Origin: a virus
IMG/VR virus record: IMGVR_UViG_3300046514_000858
Coordinates: 1 to 64,000 of that record
Length of the DNA: 64,000 nucleotides
Strand: one strand, 5' to 3'
Shown: positions 9,626 through 64,000 of the stretch, in pieces
Layout of the letters: the number at the start of each line of letters is the position of its first letter
Position numbering within the stretch: position 1 is the first letter of the stretch
The notes under the pieces: model-generated
Databases searched by the model: none
What the model saw: the letters and a program-made list of their open reading frames with translations, nothing else
Told to the model about the DNA's origin: nothing
Translations under genes and position numbers: made by a program

Positions 9626-9739
9626 ATGTGCGATCACTTCTGTCCGAACGACGCCCAGCAACTCCTGTATGGATTGATGGGATTCCTCGCGTTCATCCCG
9701 TGGGTTCGAGCTCGACTTCTTTCAAGGAGAAAGCGTTGA
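9626..9739 (+). CDS. 37-aa leaderless membrane peptide
   Basis: ATG 7 nt after CGTTCCT; MCDHFCPNDAQQLLYGLMGFLAFIPWVRARLLSRRKR. Confidence 0.5.
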   Translation: MCDHFCPNDAQQLLYGLMGFLAFIPWVRARLLSRRKR

Positions 9740-9999
9740 ACACCTACCGCATGGAGTTCCAGAGCGTCGCGAGTCACAAAGACGGCGGCGTGATGGCGAC
9801 CAAGCATCTGGTCGTGCTCGAAGCCATCTGCGCGACCGAGGCGCTGGCGGAGGCCAATCGCCGCTTTGCTTCCGCCGGGCTGTCGTCGGCCAAGTTCAAG
9901 CGCATGCTGGCCATCCGCGTGGCGCGCAAGTCCATCACCACCCGCGTGCGAGTTCAGCCGGTCCTCGCGTAACCCCTGAGCAGGAGCGTTCCTTTAGTT

Positions 10000-10218
10000 A
10001 TGGCCCACATCGAACGGAAGCCGGTCGTCTCGACCAATATCGCGTCCATCGGATACGACAAAGACGCGCTGGTGCTGGAGGTGGAGTTCCGCAAGGGCGG
10101 GATCTATCGCTACAACGATGTGACCTTCGGCGAGTACAACGCCCTCATGACCGCCGAGTCGCAGGGACGGTACTTCGCCCAGTTCATCAGGGGCAAGACC
10201 TCGGAGAAGGTGGACTGA
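10000..10218 (+). CDS. KTSC domain protein
   Basis: VVSTNIASIGYD...LEVEF..G.IYRY.DV...Y..L..AES.GRYF. Confidence 0.9.
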   Translation: MAHIERKPVVSTNIASIGYDKDALVLEVEFRKGGIYRYNDVTFGEYNALMTAESQGRYFAQFIRGKTSEKVD

Positions 10219-10511
10219 TGGGCCGCCGTAATCAGTACCTGACCGAGGGCATGGCGCAGGTCCTGCGCATCATCGACGAGAGCGACGAGAAAGAGCTCGC
10301 GCAGTCCATCCCCGGCGGCTGGTGGGTGGGCGACCAAGAGGTCGACGGGCGCGTCTGCATGGCGCTGCTACGATTCTGCCTCCTCCATCAGGAGCATGAC
10401 AGCAGCGAGACGTTCATCCGCTACACGATCAACGAGGACGGCCGAGGTGTCATGAACGATCCGACCTACGTGCCAAAGATCGTGACGGCGATGAAGGAGA
10501 AGAAGCTGTGA
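10218..10511 (+). CDS. hypothetical protein
   Basis: TGATG coupling; codon usage typical of the genome. Confidence 0.55.
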   Translation: MGRRNQYLTEGMAQVLRIIDESDEKELAQSIPGGWWVGDQEVDGRVCMALLRFCLLHQEHDSSETFIRYTINEDGRGVMNDPTYVPKIVTAMKEKKL

Positions 10512-10737
10512 ACGAACACGCGCTCATGATCGTCATCACGGTGCTGAGCCTCTGCCTTTTCCTGTGGGCCTGCTTCCCGACGCGTAAGGGCACCTACGTC
10601 GCGGGCAACTGCTTCTTCTGCCACCACTTCCGCATCATCGGGACCTGCACCAGCGTCTACACCGGCCACAAGCGCCATTGTCTGGAGTGCTGCGAGGGCA
10701 GCACTGACTGGACGCCCGAGCGCAACCGCTGACCGAG

Positions 10738-10750
10738 GTCCAAGTGGGTG
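10738..10750 (+). promoter_or_regulatory. Class III (late) promoter GTCCAAG-N4-YR before the ART cassette
   Basis: GTCCAAG-tggg-TG; same motif precedes most morphogenesis genes. Confidence 0.75.
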
Positions 10751-11505
10751 TGCAGAACGACCGTCCGCCGAGTGATTTCGACCATCCCTTCATCAAGGGT
10801 GGCTCAGGCTCCGGCAACTACGGACATCAGGGTCGCAGCGGTGAGCGAGGCGGCAGCGCGCCCGGCCAGCCCCGATCCGTGGCGGGCAAGGAGTTCAAGG
10901 GCTTCCCTCCGGCCACGAGCCCCCGCAAGGGCAAGGGCGAAAAGGTCGACGGCAAGAAGTTCGGCGCAAAACTTACAGAAGCAGAATCCAAGGCGCTGTC
11001 CGATTACGTGAATCAGGGCAGCAGCAACATCAACGATCATCTTCGCAACGGCAAGGCGTTGTTTCCCGAGTACAACGACCACATTGCCGCGGTCAATTCC
11101 GCCATCGCCAAGGGCGACAACTCCGAGCGTCTGCTCTATCGCGGCGCGCGGATCCAGTCCATGGAATCTCCCGCCTTCGACTACAGCACCGAGCGCCGGG
11201 CGTTCGTGCAGAAGTTCGAGGACCAGATCGGGAAGACCGTCACCATGAAGGGCTTCCAGAGCACGACGACTAGCCCCGAGCTGGCGGCCGAATTCGCTGG
11301 CGTGAACGACAATCCGATCTTCGAGATCCGCGCGAAGGGCGGCGCGCCCATCGGTGATCTGTTCGGCGCGAAGGAGAACGAGGTCGTGCTGCCTCACGGC
11401 GCGAAGTACAAAGTGCTCGACGTTGTGCACAACGTGAAGTTCAACAATCCCAAGTACGGTGATCGCCGGAATCGGTTCACGGTGATTCGACTGGAGATGC
11501 AGTGA
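10750..11505 (+). CDS. Arg-type ADP-ribosyltransferase (VIP2/Alt-like) with Gly-rich virion-targeting-like leader
   Basis: LYRG, FQSTT and ENEVVLP (R-S-ExE); N-terminus FDHPFIK|GGSGSGNYGHQGRSGERGGSAPG; GTG at 10750 preferred because it lies at the motif's YR position. Confidence 0.85.
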   Translation: MQNDRPPSDFDHPFIKGGSGSGNYGHQGRSGERGGSAPGQPRSVAGKEFKGFPPATSPRKGKGEKVDGKKFGAKLTEAESKALSDYVNQGSSNINDHLRNGKALFPEYNDHIAAVNSAIAKGDNSERLLYRGARIQSMESPAFDYSTERRAFVQKFEDQIGKTVTMKGFQSTTTSPELAAEFAGVNDNPIFEIRAKGGAPIGDLFGAKENEVVLPHGAKYKVLDVVHNVKFNNPKYGDRRNRFTVIRLEMQ

Positions 11506-53118: not shown

Positions 53119-53160
53119 ACCCCGGGTCTGTCCAAGTGGATGGACCCGGGGTTTTTCTTT
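53119..53160 (+). terminator. intrinsic terminator after the capsid gene, containing a GTCCAAG motif
   Basis: ACCCCGGGTC...GACCCGGGGT plus T-run; GTCCAAG at 53130. Confidence 0.8.
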
Positions 53161-53178
53161 TTCATTGCAGAGCACCGC

Positions 53179-53985
53179 ATGACGCTATACGCCTGCCTGA
53201 ACGTCTATCAGGAGGAAGCGCTCCTCCCTGACTGCCTCCGCTCAATCCGTCACGTTCTTCCGCAGGCCAAGATCATCCTGATCGACGGGGCCTATGCGTC
53301 GTGGGTCCGGCACGTCCGGATCGAAGCCGCCGTCGAGCTGTCGCTCGGCAACACCGGCATCGGCAACGACATGCTGGCGCGCTTCGTCAGCGCCGAATCG
53401 ACCGACCGCACCATTGAGATCGCCAAGTCCTTCGACGTCGAGCACATCGTGATGCCGAAGACCCAGTGCATGTGCGGCGGCAAGAAGTTCGACTACGGGT
53501 ACTACGAGAAGGGCGCGTACCTGCCGTGGCCGACCGAGTGGGAGAAGCGCAATCGATTCTTCGAGTTCGGCAAGAACGGGGACTACTACTTCATCGTCGA
53601 CGGCGACGAGCGCCTGCGCGGCACCCTGCCGGAGCTCAAGGAGGACCACTACAACGTGATGCTCCAGCGCGACGACGAAATGGGGGCCTATCCCGTGCAG
53701 CGCGTCTTCAAACACCAGCCCGGCATCAAGATGGAGGGCGCGCACATGGCGGTCTGGGTCGACAGCCCCGCGGGCCCGCGGCTGCTGCGTCGCCTAGATC
53801 GCAAGGACAAGCAAGGCAACGTGATCGAGAAGTCCGACGCCCACCTCCTGCAGGGCATCACCATCGACCATCTCTTCAACGAGCGCGGCTCGACCGATCA
53901 GGTCCGGCACATGGCGAAGGGCGCGTATTACCGGCATGGCCTCAGCAAGGAAGAGGAAGGCTTCCGTCAGAAGTTCGACGTATGA
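53179..53985 (+). CDS. family 2-like glycosyltransferase
   Basis: LNVYQEE..L..CL.SI...IDGAY...STDRT...EKRN...VDGDE. Confidence 0.8.
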   Translation: MTLYACLNVYQEEALLPDCLRSIRHVLPQAKIILIDGAYASWVRHVRIEAAVELSLGNTGIGNDMLARFVSAESTDRTIEIAKSFDVEHIVMPKTQCMCGGKKFDYGYYEKGAYLPWPTEWEKRNRFFEFGKNGDYYFIVDGDERLRGTLPELKEDHYNVMLQRDDEMGAYPVQRVFKHQPGIKMEGAHMAVWVDSPAGPRLLRRLDRKDKQGNVIEKSDAHLLQGITIDHLFNERGSTDQVRHMAKGAYYRHGLSKEEEGFRQKFDV

Positions 53986-60316: not shown

Positions 60317-61089
60317 TGGCCACTCCTTCGATCAAGTTCGATAGCGTCGACCTCGCCGAGTACATCGCGACGTGGGGCGAGAACGCCAACGCCCGCATCA
60401 ACGCCGTCACGGTCCCCCGGCGGCACGGTGCCCTCATCACGGAATCCGTGGTCGAGGACGCCCGGACCATCAACGTCGCGGGCCGGATCTCCGCCGACAC
60501 CGCCTCGGGCCTGCGCGATCTGCTGGACGCTCTGTCCGAGCTCTTCACGCGCCGCGGCAAGCGTCTGCAGCTCTGGGACGACCGGTACATCGTGGCCTAC
60601 AAGGCGACCTTTGCCTTCGCGTACGTGGTCGGCTCGGCCCTGCGGGCGGTCGACTTCACGCTCCAGTTCTTCTGCCCCGACCCGTTCTGGTACGGCACCT
60701 CGGCAGAGACCACGAACTACGACCTGACCGAGGCCGACGTCCCGCTCGACATCACCAACAACAAGTACCGCCGGACGATCACGATCAACAACCCCGGCAG
60801 CGCCTACATCTTCCCGCTCATCACGGTCACGACCGGCCTTGAGCCCCTGACCACGATTGTGGTGCGGAACATCACCAGCGGCCGGTATTTCGTGTACACC
60901 GGGACGCTTCCCATCGGCAAGGCGCTCGTGATCGACATGGCCAATTTCACGGTCAACAACGACGGCGTCGAGGACCTGACCAACTTTCAGGGCGACTTCT
61001 TTGCCCTCCAGCCGGGGGACAACGAGATCCAGATCGAGGGCACCGCCCCGGCCAACTACCAGTTCGACTACCCCATCCGGTACAACTGA
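60316..61089 (+). CDS. distal tail protein (Dit)
   Basis: VP.RHG...F.CPDPFWY...NPGS...P.I...GDFF.LQPG.N.I. Confidence 0.8.
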   Translation: MATPSIKFDSVDLAEYIATWGENANARINAVTVPRRHGALITESVVEDARTINVAGRISADTASGLRDLLDALSELFTRRGKRLQLWDDRYIVAYKATFAFAYVVGSALRAVDFTLQFFCPDPFWYGTSAETTNYDLTEADVPLDITNNKYRRTITINNPGSAYIFPLITVTTGLEPLTTIVVRNITSGRYFVYTGTLPIGKALVIDMANFTVNNDGVEDLTNFQGDFFALQPGDNEIQIEGTAPANYQFDYPIRYN

Positions 61090-61766
61090 TGAACCGGGAG
61101 GACTTCCTCTTCCCGGCCGGTACCGTCGCCGCCCGGCCCCGGCGGAGGGGTCTGGCCCGTATGATGGTGCTGGACCGCGCCACGGGCGATTTAACGCATC
61201 GTACGGTCCAAAACCTCCCAGAGTACCTTTCCGGCTGGGAAACGTGGGCAAACGCCTCCTACGCAGCGCAGCACCCCAATCCAGAGCTGCACCCCCTCTA
61301 CGCCGCCGTTCCGGGGTCCCACGCCACCCCCAGCGCCGGGATCCCCCTGCCCGAGGATGTGGTCAAACGGCTGGAAATCAAGACGTTCACTCTCCACATC
61401 GGCGGTCCAAGAGATCAGCCGGACATTCGCCAAGGATTCAAGACCGGGGTGGGCTGGCGGGAATGGTACCAAATTCCCGCCCCGCCCAAGACCCCGGTCG
61501 CTGCCATCGGAACGACGGCGGTCAAGGCCATGGAGACGTGGGCTCGAACCGGCCAGCTTGAAGGCTGGAGCGACCTCTTCATCCAGCCCCCCTTCGAGTT
61601 CAAGGCTGTCGGGAAGCTGCTGACGAATTGGCACTTTCCCGGCGAGCCGCTGCTGGCGCTGACCTGCGCCTTCGGCGGATATGAATTTGTGCGTGAGGCA
61701 TACGAGGCGGCTGTGGCCGAGAAGTATCTCTTCTCCTGCTACGGCGACCGCCTCCTGATCATCTGA
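61089..61766 (+). CDS. QueA-like SAM ribosyltransferase homologue lacking the inserted beta-barrel domain
   Basis: RMMVLDR..G...H, YA..PGS.A.PSAG, TLHIG, AIGTT.V.A.E, LFI.P, L.TNWHFP, AY..A....Y.F..YGD..LI. Confidence 0.8.
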   Translation: MNREDFLFPAGTVAARPRRRGLARMMVLDRATGDLTHRTVQNLPEYLSGWETWANASYAAQHPNPELHPLYAAVPGSHATPSAGIPLPEDVVKRLEIKTFTLHIGGPRDQPDIRQGFKTGVGWREWYQIPAPPKTPVAAIGTTAVKAMETWARTGQLEGWSDLFIQPPFEFKAVGKLLTNWHFPGEPLLALTCAFGGYEFVREAYEAAVAEKYLFSCYGDRLLII

Positions 61767-64000
61767 TGAGTTGCACGGGTCCGGCCCCGACCTTCGCGGA
61801 TATCGGCGATTGGGTCCTCTCTCACGACGGATCCGGTTGCGAGAACACCGCCACCATCCACGTCAACGCCGAGTGCGGCTCGTCCGGCTACACCGTCAAG
61901 CTCATCCGCACCATCGACGGATCCGACACGACGGTCTACACGGCCTCCATCCCCAACGGACCTTTGACGGCGATGGCGTTCTCGTACGAGGACCTTCCGC
62001 CGTGCGGGCACAAGACCATCGAATACCGCTGGGAGATCCAGTGCGACGGCGTCCTGCAGTCGACCAGCTACAACATGTCGACGGATCAGGGTGGCGGCCA
62101 GACCCTGACCGGGCACACGATCAATGTCTCCTCGTGCGAGGCCACCGACCAGATCCGGGTGCAGCAGAATTGCGGCAACTGCGCGGCCACCCTCAAGCTC
62201 TATCGGTCGGCCATCAACTCCTCGGTCACCTTCGATCCGGGCGAGGTGATTTACACGGTTTCCGTCGGCGCGGGCGTGACCGACCAGACGTACTCGTACG
62301 GCGACACTCCGACCTGCGGCTACGGCCAGTACCACTACCAGTGGCGGCTCACGCCGTCCGATGACGCGGCGATCACGTCGGACGAGCAGACGTACGATCA
62401 GGAAACCGCCCCGACAGTCGACGGCTTCACGCTGACCCCCGCAGGTTGCGACAACGTTGCCAGCGTCCACGTTCTCCAACCCTGCGGCCGGTGCGGTGCG
62501 ATCCTGAAACTATACCGCCACTTCAACGGCTCGGTGGCCTTCAGTCCCGACGAAGTCATCCACACGGAAGATGTGCCGCAGGGATTCTCCGATGCCACGT
62601 ACAGCTACACCGACACGCCCTCTTGCGGTAAGGGAACGTGGCACTACGCGTGGAAGCTGGAATGGGACAACGGCTCGACCGGCGTCGCGGAGCTCACGGC
62701 CGATGGCGCGCTCCCGGCAACCCTCGTCGATCACGAGATCGCCAAAGACGCCGAGTGCAACATCACCAACAAGATCAAGGTCACGAATCCCTGCCTCGCG
62801 TGCGCGGGCACGATCAAGCTCTATCGGAAGCTCAACTCCGCGCCCGCGGGCGTGCCGGGCGAGCTGATCTATACCGACGCCGTCCCGGCGGGGCTGATCG
62901 TCCACAAGCAGTACATCTACACCGAGCATCCGGGAGACGGGCACTGGTACTACGAGTGGTCGGTCGTGGATGTGGACGGCAACGTCGACGACACGCTGCC
63001 TCCCAAGGACATCACGGTCGACTGCACGGTCTACGTTCCCGCCCGGGTCACGCTGCCTTCGGATGCGTTCGAGAAGCAGGTCGTGCTCGTGCAGGTCACG
63101 GGATCCCCCGCGGGCGGGCTGATCTTCACCGACAAGCAGATTCTCAATCTCGCCGAGCAGCGGCTGGAGTGGTGGTACCACAAGAACGGCGGCTGTGCCT
63201 ACTTCCGGATCCTGACCCACGAGTTCCTCGACGGCGCGGACTTCACCGACGCGATGGATGAGTCGTGGGAGGTCCACGTCCGCATCAAGCTGGGCGGCGA
63301 GGACACGTACACGACGTGGTACCGCGGCGTCATCCGATCCATCAAGCAGCAGGAACAGGGCACCGACCTCTACATGGACGTCCGCGGCTACGGCTACGTC
63401 GAGATGCTCAACAACATCATGGTCCAGCGGGAGTATCCCGTGGGCATGACGGTCAAAGAGATCGTCGACGACATCATCGACAAGGACGTCCGGCCGTGGA
63501 CTCGCATCGTCCGGCCGAGCGACATCGACGTCACGAACGGCGACAGCGGCGTCGATCCGTCCGGCTATGCCATCAAAGACCGCGTCCACTTCGAGTGCTC
63601 CGCCCTCACCGCGATCAAGTTCCTCGCCGAGCTGCAGGGCGACCGTGAATGGGGAGTTGACGCCCTCCGGCGCTTCTACTTCCGGGCCAACAACTCGGAT
63701 GTCGTGGCCAACTTCTTCCTGCTGAAGGACGTCATCGACCGCGTCGCGGGCGGCAAGATCCTCGGCCAGACCAACAGCTACAAGATGGCGGGCAAGTCCT
63801 TCGGCGCACGCGACTATCTCAAGGTGCGCGCGGACGTGACGGACGCCACCGCCGTGGGCCGCCGCGAGAAGGCAGTCGAGCTGCCGTGGCTGGAGGGCGA
63901 CCTCGACGCCAGCCGCTGGGCCGACAACATCATCGGCATCAATCGGGGTGGGCAGCAGTGGGCCGTCATCACGAAGAAGCACGTCACCCAGCGCCTCGAC
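61766..64000 (+). CDS. baseplate hub/Tal-like protein with four N-terminal Cys-rich Ig/FN3-like repeats (runs off the window; absent from the ORF track)
   Basis: ATG at 61766 (TGATG); four ~100-aa repeats C...C(xxC)...KL(Y/I)R...Y.D.P.CG...Y.W, then NGGCAYF...WYRG.I...GYGY...L hub-like region. Confidence 0.7.
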   Translation, partial: MSCTGPAPTFADIGDWVLSHDGSGCENTATIHVNAECGSSGYTVKLIRTIDGSDTTVYTASIPNGPLTAMAFSYEDLPPCGHKTIEYRWEIQCDGVLQSTSYNMSTDQGGGQTLTGHTINVSSCEATDQIRVQQNCGNCAATLKLYRSAINSSVTFDPGEVIYTVSVGAGVTDQTYSYGDTPTCGYGQYHYQWRLTPSDDAAITSDEQTYDQETAPTVDGFTLTPAGCDNVASVHVLQPCGRCGAILKLYRHFNGSVAFSPDEVIHTEDVPQGFSDATYSYTDTPSCGKGTWHYAWKLEWDNGSTGVAELTADGALPATLVDHEIAKDAECNITNKIKVTNPCLACAGTIKLYRKLNSAPAGVPGELIYTDAVPAGLIVHKQYIYTEHPGDGHWYYEWSVVDVDGNVDDTLPPKDITVDCTVYVPARVTLPSDAFEKQVVLVQVTGSPAGGLIFTDKQILNLAEQRLEWWYHKNGGCAYFRILTHEFLDGADFTDAMDESWEVHVRIKLGGEDTYTTWYRGVIRSIKQQEQGTDLYMDVRGYGYVEMLNNIMVQREYPVGMTVKEIVDDIIDKDVRPWTRIVRPSDIDVTNGDSGVDPSGYAIKDRVHFECSALTAIKFLAELQGDREWGVDALRRFYFRANNSDVVANFFLLKDVIDRVAGGKILGQTNSYKMAGKSFGARDYLKVRADVTDATAVGRREKAVELPWLEGDLDASRWADNIIGINRGGQQWAVITKKHVTQRLD

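Follow-up and report, generated by a model that had tools for sequence, protein, structure and literature searches.

The window analysed here is the first 64 kb of the 93,745-bp IMG/VR virus record IMGVR_UViG_3300046514_000858, an uncultured phage; the record carries direct terminal repeats and was treated as a complete genome, and the gene searches cover all 93,745 bp. Between two tail genes of this phage we found a gene encoding a protein of 225 amino acids (aa) related to QueA, the tRNA preQ1(34) ribosyltransferase-isomerase, and we demonstrate that this QueA-like protein is the alpha/beta domain of QueA alone, with the inserted barrel cleanly removed. As judged from the phylogeny, the residue conservation and the gene order, the tail-type family to which it belongs is monophyletic, under purifying selection and syntenic. 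Tentatively, we suggest that its S-adenosylmethionine (SAM) handling core has been repurposed for an acceptor other than tRNA, the protein being a maturation or accessory enzyme that would act on, or sit with, proteins of the tail tip.

The protein is a QueA alpha/beta domain without the barrel

The QueA profile PF02547 (Queuosine_synth) matches the protein with 134.6 bits (cut-off 25; E 5.6e-39), in two pieces only: residues 5-49 correspond to profile positions 5-49, and residues 69-224, to positions 151-322. The same split is seen with a match in the PDB, T. maritima QueA (1vky; phmmer E 4e-27), where residues 5-49 of the query align with chain residues 19-64, and residues 66-225, with 170-347. 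Chain residues 65-169 of 1vky, the ~105 residues of the barrel, have no counterpart in the phage protein, which has a linker of roughly 10-16 residues instead, and no piece encoding a barrel was found elsewhere in the 93,745-bp genome. An earlier interpretation of the window made from the nucleotide sequence without database searches (below, the sequence-only reading) had claimed that the N- and C-terminal motifs of QueA are joined directly (ANASY...LYAAVPGS) in a protein of 225 aa, and the two-piece matches to Pfam and 1vky uphold this. The equivalog cut-offs of NCBIfam for QueA are missed by far (TIGR00113, 95.2 bits with the cut-off of 267.45; NF001140, 116.9 bits with the cut-off of 324).

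The AF2 model of the protein, built with 21 homologues, has pLDDT 89.7 and pTM 0.89 and contains no barrel. Compared with QueA, as the sequence-only reading had proposed, it superposes on the alpha/beta domain of the solved structures: VIA-align to 1wdi, 1vky and 1yy3 gave, as a set, Z-scores of 22.7, 21.4 and 21.2, with root-mean-square deviations of 2.3-2.4 A over 185-196 residues, the next match after the QueA structures being at Z 3.5. Foldseek matched the model to QueA with E 1e-13, and no match to the model was found in the BFVD library of viral structures.

Thus, the protein shares a homologous alpha/beta domain with QueA (PF02547; TIGR00113; 1VKY, 1YY3, 1WDI), including the QueA invariants N55, E125, GTT141-143, E149, TNxH179-182, Y213 and GD219-220, but it differs from QueA in lacking the inserted beta-barrel of ~100 aa, the GxxPLPPYI motif and the YQT motif, and its gene is situated in a phage tail operon and not with tgt.

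The short proteins form one family

In a search of 5.8 billion proteins, homologues of 220-235 aa with 37-72% identity ranked before any full-length QueA. A profile search of 1.84 billion representatives yielded more short forms; its best 150 hits include at least nine tail-type clusters (50% identity). Altogether, the tail-type family comprises at least 27 proteins of 220-250 aa, with the frame intact and identity down to 30%. The 27 tail-type proteins make up one side of a branch with SH-aLRT support of 98 when the alpha/beta domain is used for a maximum-likelihood tree (78 rows, quick IQ-TREE search).

Four other short QueA-like sequences are scattered among full-length QueA on the same tree and are hence of separate origin or artefacts. 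These sequences (P0129, P0136, P0140 and P0146; 228-252 aa) may represent independent deletions or errors of assembly; P0146 resembles canonical QueA, with YQT, LHF and GDA all present, minus only the barrel.

A scan with peptide patterns of GTDB, one genome per species, yielded no relative of the short type in 185,579 prokaryotic species. Among cultured phages (INPHARED) there were only matches below 35% identity to canonical queA or to unannotated fragments; the tail tube protein of the window phage likewise has no cultured relative except a haloarchaeal virus at 25% identity. Fused or longer forms, with Dit or Tal, were not found, save two slightly long canonical QueA sequences.

The gene is placed between Dit and Tal

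The gene directly follows that of the distal tail protein (Dit), identified by PF22768, PF05709 and phrog_33, and directly precedes a gene for a large tail-tip protein that we call Tal (Table 1). The TGA of Dit shares one base with the ATG of the QueA-like gene, and the TGA of the QueA-like gene shares one base with the ATG of Tal, so that both junctions read TGATG. This confirms the coupling on both sides by which the sequence-only reading had placed the gene in the tail operon. We observed no terminator-like or sigma-70-like site on the + strand between the tape measure protein (TMP) gene and Tal. Homologues of TMP, whose gene opens the block TMP-Dit-QueA-like-Tal, are present in all related loci. 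The assignment of the downstream gene as hub/Tal has weaker evidence: phrog_196 ("baseplate hub") matches with E 3e-4, and with 7e-6 in one homologue, two of the four homologues being matched at all, and the size of the protein and its place after Dit point the same way.

Table 1. Positions of the features discussed, in window coordinates unless stated otherwise (aa, amino acids; ORF, open reading frame; L followed by a number, locus label).
Feature	Position	Strand	Evidence and remarks
Barrel-less QueA-like protein, 225 aa	61089..61766	+	ORF, PF02547, AF2 model
N-terminal segment of the QueA alpha/beta domain (profile 5-49)	61101..61232	+	Pfam, phmmer; canonical invariants R20 and N55 kept
Junction/linker replacing the ~100-aa beta-barrel, GxxPLPPYI and YQT	61233..61292	+	Gap between the Pfam pieces; alignment with 94-183 full-length QueA
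C-terminal segment of the QueA alpha/beta domain (profile 151-322)	61293..61760	+	Pfam, alignments; core residues and K146, E186, R221
Dit (distal tail protein), 257 aa	60316..61089	+	PF22768 E 1.8e-10, PF05709 E 2.3e-6, phrog_33 E 1.6e-35
TMP (tape measure protein), 833 aa	57815..60316	+	PF10145 weak (E 3e-4, below cut-off), Gly-zipper, position, size
Tal/baseplate-hub-like tail-tip protein, 1115 aa	61766..65113 (genome; window part to 64000)	+	ORF, phrog_196
GTCCAAG inside the QueA-like ORF	61405..61411	+	355 nt before Tal starts; may be an internal late promoter, uncertain whether it belongs to the feature
Sugar-tailoring cluster after the tail module	genome 69264-74933, 78635-79594, 83484-84302 (L003:9264-14930, L003:18635-19591, L004:5484-6299)
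Homologues of the post-capsid gene	L005:977-1774, L006:1291-2019, L013:2058-2810
Near-full-length lineage members			P0024, P0025, P0027-P0030, P0125, P0126, P0128, P0132

Neighbourhoods were collected by pattern scans of IMG/VR and JGI metagenomes, and the ORFs called there were compared with the proteins of the window genome; all loci below come from these two sources. Such a survey of short QueA homologues had been proposed in the sequence-only reading. The short homologue was found in seven distinct loci (L005, L006, L009, L011, L012, L013 and L036; GC content 0.44-0.63, identity 30-67%), and in all seven, each with usable flanks, the gene stands directly after Dit, directly before Tal, or both. 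It directly follows Dit in six loci (L005, L006, L009, L011, L013, L036) and directly precedes a Tal of 1100-1465 aa in four (L005, L006, L012, L013), the stop and start codons of the gene and its neighbours overlapping or abutting (0-4 nt).

In its divergence the QueA-like gene keeps pace with Dit and Tal. Identities to the window proteins for QueA-like, Dit and Tal, respectively, are 67, 65 and 60% in L005 and 32, 36 and 31% in L013, and for QueA-like and Dit they are 56 and 55% in L009 and 37 and 38% in L006. Where Dit is only 24-34% identical, Tal comes directly after Dit and the QueA-like gene is absent; hence, the gene is a clade-specific addition to the tail-tip block. Taken together, the gene orders and identities indicate that it is a vertically inherited, fixed member of this block in a clade of uncultured siphophages with genomes of ~85-100 kb.

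The Tal proteins of these phages have an unusual N-terminus. Residues 1-420 of the window Tal (61766-63030) consist of four tandem Cys-rich repeats of ~100 aa, with the pattern C-x11-C-x2-C-x43-C and KLYR, and a conserved hub region comes after them. Such repeats, with CxxC and KLYR conserved, are present in each of the four complete Tal homologues from loci with the QueA-like gene; the copy number is four in the window, three in L005 (10675-15069) and two each in L012 (549-4475) and L013 (10725-14111). The extreme N-terminus, M-x-C-x-G-x-x-P, is invariant (M1, C3, G5, P8). In L016, the one relative without the QueA-like gene whose Tal was checked, N-terminal repeats are present too, but the first 450 residues contain only one Cys.

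Residues kept, lost and gained

The residue comparison is based on an alignment of the 27 short proteins with 183 full-length sequences of canonical QueA (a first pass used 94 full-length sequences). There are 44 canonical columns with conservation of at least 95%, and a column was considered kept if at least 85% of the short proteins had the same residue. By this measure, 21 of the 44 columns are kept in the short family: N55, G76, P81, A83, L102, E125, G141, T142, T143, E149, P167, T179, N180, F181, H182, A194, Y205, A208, Y213, G219 and D220. Every column of the alpha/beta domain that is 100% conserved in canonical QueA is among them, the polar ones included. Ten columns are deleted (the barrel entry, GxxPLPPYI, YQT and part of GTFxP), and the remaining 13, LHF among them, are changed or relaxed. 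In the first-pass alignment, the short family has N or G in place of one His whose conservation in canonical QueA is 99%.

The short family has new invariants as well, namely K146, E186 and R221, where canonical QueA has R, S and A, respectively. Mean conservation within the family is 0.84 at the canonical-conserved columns vs 0.52 at the others, which speaks against a mere scaffold and for a core retained for ligand binding or catalysis, together with a second site that has been remodelled. The sequence-only reading had noted SAG, NWH and GDR in place of the canonical TAG, NFH and GDA. The first and the last of these substitutions hold for the family (S in 78% of the members; R221 in at least 90% of the 27 tail-type proteins), whereas NWH is found only in the window protein and its two closest relatives, the family consensus being the canonical NFH.

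Possible function and the alternatives

In the reaction of QueA, SAM becomes a sulfonium ylide by activation at C5', after which the ribose opens, adenine leaves, the amine adds and methionine is displaced. As the fully conserved polar residues of the QueA core are kept in the short family, it is reasonable to infer that SAM handling has been retained with a changed acceptor. The alpha/beta core, going by its conserved residues, would still bind and probably activate SAM, and the lost parts (the barrel, PLPPYI, YQT, LHF, GTFxP and the 99%-conserved His) would be those that handle preQ1-tRNA; if so, the protein acts on a different nucleophile. In principle, any good nucleophile at the retained SAM site could be alkylated, and reaction with water would destroy SAM. 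Kozbial and Mushegian (PMC1282579) judged the barrel of QueA unlikely to contact SAM and described an unassigned ligand at the C-terminal strand ends of the alpha/beta domain.

The protein would be a late product, in amounts roughly similar to those of Dit and Tal, which are present in six and three copies per tail, respectively. SAM being available only in the cytoplasm, there are two occasions on which the protein could act: towards the end of infection, while tails are assembled in the cell, or, once delivered, in the next host. We prefer a role at the tail tip because of the coupled, near-stoichiometric expression with Dit and Tal, the co-inheritance with both, and the unusual N-terminus of Tal in the relatives that have the QueA-like gene. 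The candidate targets would be the Cys-rich N-terminal repeats of Tal, or a glycan on them, and not tRNA or DNA; since the phage has many sugar-tailoring genes (Table 1), a glycan amine on a tail protein is a possible acceptor. There is a partial parallel in phage lambda, where an enzyme-like protein of the peptidase type, gpK, is encoded between gpL and gpI among the tail-tip genes. In both cases the gene for a small protein with an enzyme fold stands between those for the distal tail and the hub and is expressed along with these, but gpK is of the peptidase type and the phage protein is a QueA domain, the folds and chemistries being unrelated, with no homology.

A more specific proposal, rather unlikely as it stands, is that the barrel-free QueA-derived enzyme uses the SAM sulfonium ylide to modify a tail-tip protein or its glycan, an amine or thiol of which would receive an adduct derived from ribose (cyclopentyl-type), or, as a variant, that it is delivered with the tail and destroys SAM.

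Several observations weigh against an active SAM-dependent enzyme of the tail tip. The 13 changed positions, with the 99%-conserved His and the GTFxP loop among them, could mean that the enzyme is dead. We found no ligand-bound QueA among the solved structures, and the kept and lost residues are not assignable to SAM or to tRNA. The association between the Cys repeats of Tal and the QueA-like gene comes from one clade and so, as far as these sequences go, has no phylogenetic independence. Finally, the GC content at third codon positions is 0.79 in the QueA-like gene, vs 0.89-0.93 in its neighbours.

If the alpha/beta domain had been recruited as a catalytically silent building block or assembly factor of the tail tip, with no SAM chemistry, one would have its fixed position beside Dit and Tal with coupled start and stop codons in seven of seven loci, its divergence in step with both, and the deletion or change of half of the conserved canonical positions, a probable lid loop included. 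However, over 30-72% identity the family has kept every polar residue that is fully invariant in the canonical alpha/beta domain, and this, with the conservation contrast described above, is unusual for a scaffold; the lack of a fused Dit or Tal form among the sequences found is weak evidence in the same direction. Such a silent exaptation, for which the enzyme-like gpK of lambda would be a comparable case, is in our view unlikely, if far from negligible. It is improbable, in turn, that the protein is anti-defence cargo carried by the tail, in which the QueA core would destroy SAM (yielding adenine, methionine and a ribose-derived product) and starve SAM-dependent restriction or BREX systems. 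The core is indeed kept while the acceptor-side elements are lost, and among the neighbours of the gene are those for the tape measure and the tail tip, proteins that are released from the virion on infection, but a folded domain of 25 kDa would need unfolding to pass the tail tube, and only QueA structures clearly matched the model in the fold searches. To our knowledge, the phage SAM-cleaving enzymes of the T3 SAMase type are encoded by early genes and have a fold unrelated to QueA. With T3 SAM lyase the protein would share SAM as the substrate, were the SAM-destroying explanation true; it differs in being encoded in the tail operon and not by an early gene, and the fold searches gave no match to a SAM lyase, although absence from their result lists does not exclude a family.

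An ordinary tRNA role or decay is very unlikely. The former would make the protein a minimal QueA that boosts queuosine in the host, i.e. the product of an auxiliary metabolic gene. Homology is clear and the core is retained, some members are already labelled QueA in public sources, and a host could supply preQ1-tRNA, the role of the barrel not being established (PMC1282579). On the other hand, the architecture, the lost motifs (the barrel and ten conserved positions deleted, 13 more changed) and the late-operon position in every locus make a tRNA role unlikely; besides, the scores of 95 and 117 bits fall well below the equivalog cut-offs of 267 and 324, the phage has neither tgt nor preQ1 genes, and the short family was not found in the 185,579 species genomes scanned, so that we rate this possibility as quite improbable. 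Still less can be said for a decaying fragment or a recently acquired moron without conserved function, which we find scarcely credible: it would fit the length, two thirds of that of QueA, and the third-position GC content somewhat below that of the neighbours, but at least 27 homologues down to 30% identity have an intact frame, belong to one clade and share a clean, conserved deletion boundary and synteny, and the fold is predicted with confidence. The sequence-only reading had named decay as one outcome that would overturn it, and these homologues speak to the contrary.

Modification of DNA had been listed in the same reading among the possible targets, in the form of deazaguanine DNA. If the QueA-like protein converted 7-deazaguanine (preQ1) in phage DNA into a queuosine-like base, its substrate would be the one that QueA naturally uses as acceptor, and some phages do have preQ1 in their DNA (PMC6884629). 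The gene, however, sits among tail genes and not replication genes, and the complete genome has no TGT/DpdA, QueC or FolE (GTP cyclohydrolase I); the claim that the window lacks tgt and other que genes thus extends to all 93,745 bp, the remainder having been searched as proposed. TGT was not found either in three other virus records with the QueA-like gene (two relatives and G001). Deazaguanine DNA is therefore an unlikely target, and we hold this alternative to be highly improbable. What remains preferred, tentatively, is the repurposed SAM-handling enzyme of the tail tip.

Barrel-containing relatives and a possible origin

The closest full-length relatives have 320-333 aa and are 46-54% identical over the shared domain. 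This near-full-length lineage (members in Table 1) already has K146, E186 and the stretch LLALTCAFGG, as in the short family, but, unlike the latter, it keeps the barrel and YRF and lacks R221. No member was found in the 185,579 GTDB species genomes. The sole context seen for the lineage is L007 (IMG/VR 3300031576_000109, 44,156 bp, a complete record with direct terminal repeats), where the gene at 9722-10945 adjoins integrase and ParB genes and not a tail module. The record has no recognisable Dit and no TGT, and the neighbours of the gene have no Pfam or PHROG matches besides the integrase, ParB and a nucleotide phosphatase-like protein. A plausible path leads from canonical QueA to a barrel-containing lineage of mobile elements or viruses, and then, by loss of the barrel, to fixation in the tail module.

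About 27 IMG/VR contigs of the prophage type (L035, L038-L064) end within ~20 nt of a match to canonical-type queA, and the single one that was opened, L035, has a full-length queA. We rejected these matches as viral QueA and consider them the host flank of prophages. They suggest a recurrent prophage insertion site beside queA, and such insertion may also explain the QueA-like appearance of phrog_28663 ("unknown function").

Other features of the genome

The heptamer GTCCAAG occurs 17 times in the window, with 8.2 copies expected, and none of 100 shuffles reached 17. Fifteen of the 17 lie on the + strand, and most of these shortly precede the start of a late gene (sites include 53130, 54557, 56043, 57750 and 61405).

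The sugar-tailoring cluster contains genes for a methyltransferase-like protein, a GT2 transferase, a DegT/EryC1 aminotransferase (E 6e-74) and GT1-like and GT47-like transferases, as well as an NAD epimerase/dehydratase and a UDP-glucose dehydrogenase-like gene. The DegT aminotransferase would make amino sugars, and the gene content suggests glycosylation of the virion or of DNA. This aminotransferase is common to the window phage and its close relative G002; for the more distant, incomplete records, the comparison is uninformative.

Two further genes deserve mention. One directly follows the major capsid gene (window 53140-53985); its product of 240-280 aa is present in all relatives with 39-62% identity and has no Pfam match. 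The other, at genome positions 89654-93310 (L004:11654-15307), is a single ORF of 1218 aa for DNA polymerase III alpha (PHP, NTPase, finger and HHH domains) with a C-terminal domain of the uracil-DNA glycosylase superfamily (residues 1062-1195, E 2e-15).

Implications

According to PMC6884629 and PMC8265664, no virus encodes QueA; the term "QueA-like" was found in only one paper of the literature searched, and there in another sense. The protein described here has a known fold and belongs to a known superfamily, and what is new is the architecture, the genomic role and, probably, the substrate. QueA labels on proteins of the short family in public sources are probably wrong. Up to now QueA has been regarded as a bacterial tRNA enzyme with one purpose, and the viral lineage is a second biological context for the QueA fold.

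The compact domain of 225 aa could be of use in dissecting the QueA mechanism into the part that deals with SAM and the part that deals with tRNA. Should the protein be inert, it would illustrate neatly how a tail can take over an enzyme fold as a structural part; should it be a SAM destroyer delivered by the tail, a second, unrelated fold for SAM destruction would be added. If it is active on a tail component, it would represent a new modification of the virion, and an adduct, if one is indeed formed, would modify proteins or glycans in a way that is new and would mean that the QueA fold acts, for the first time, on something other than tRNA.

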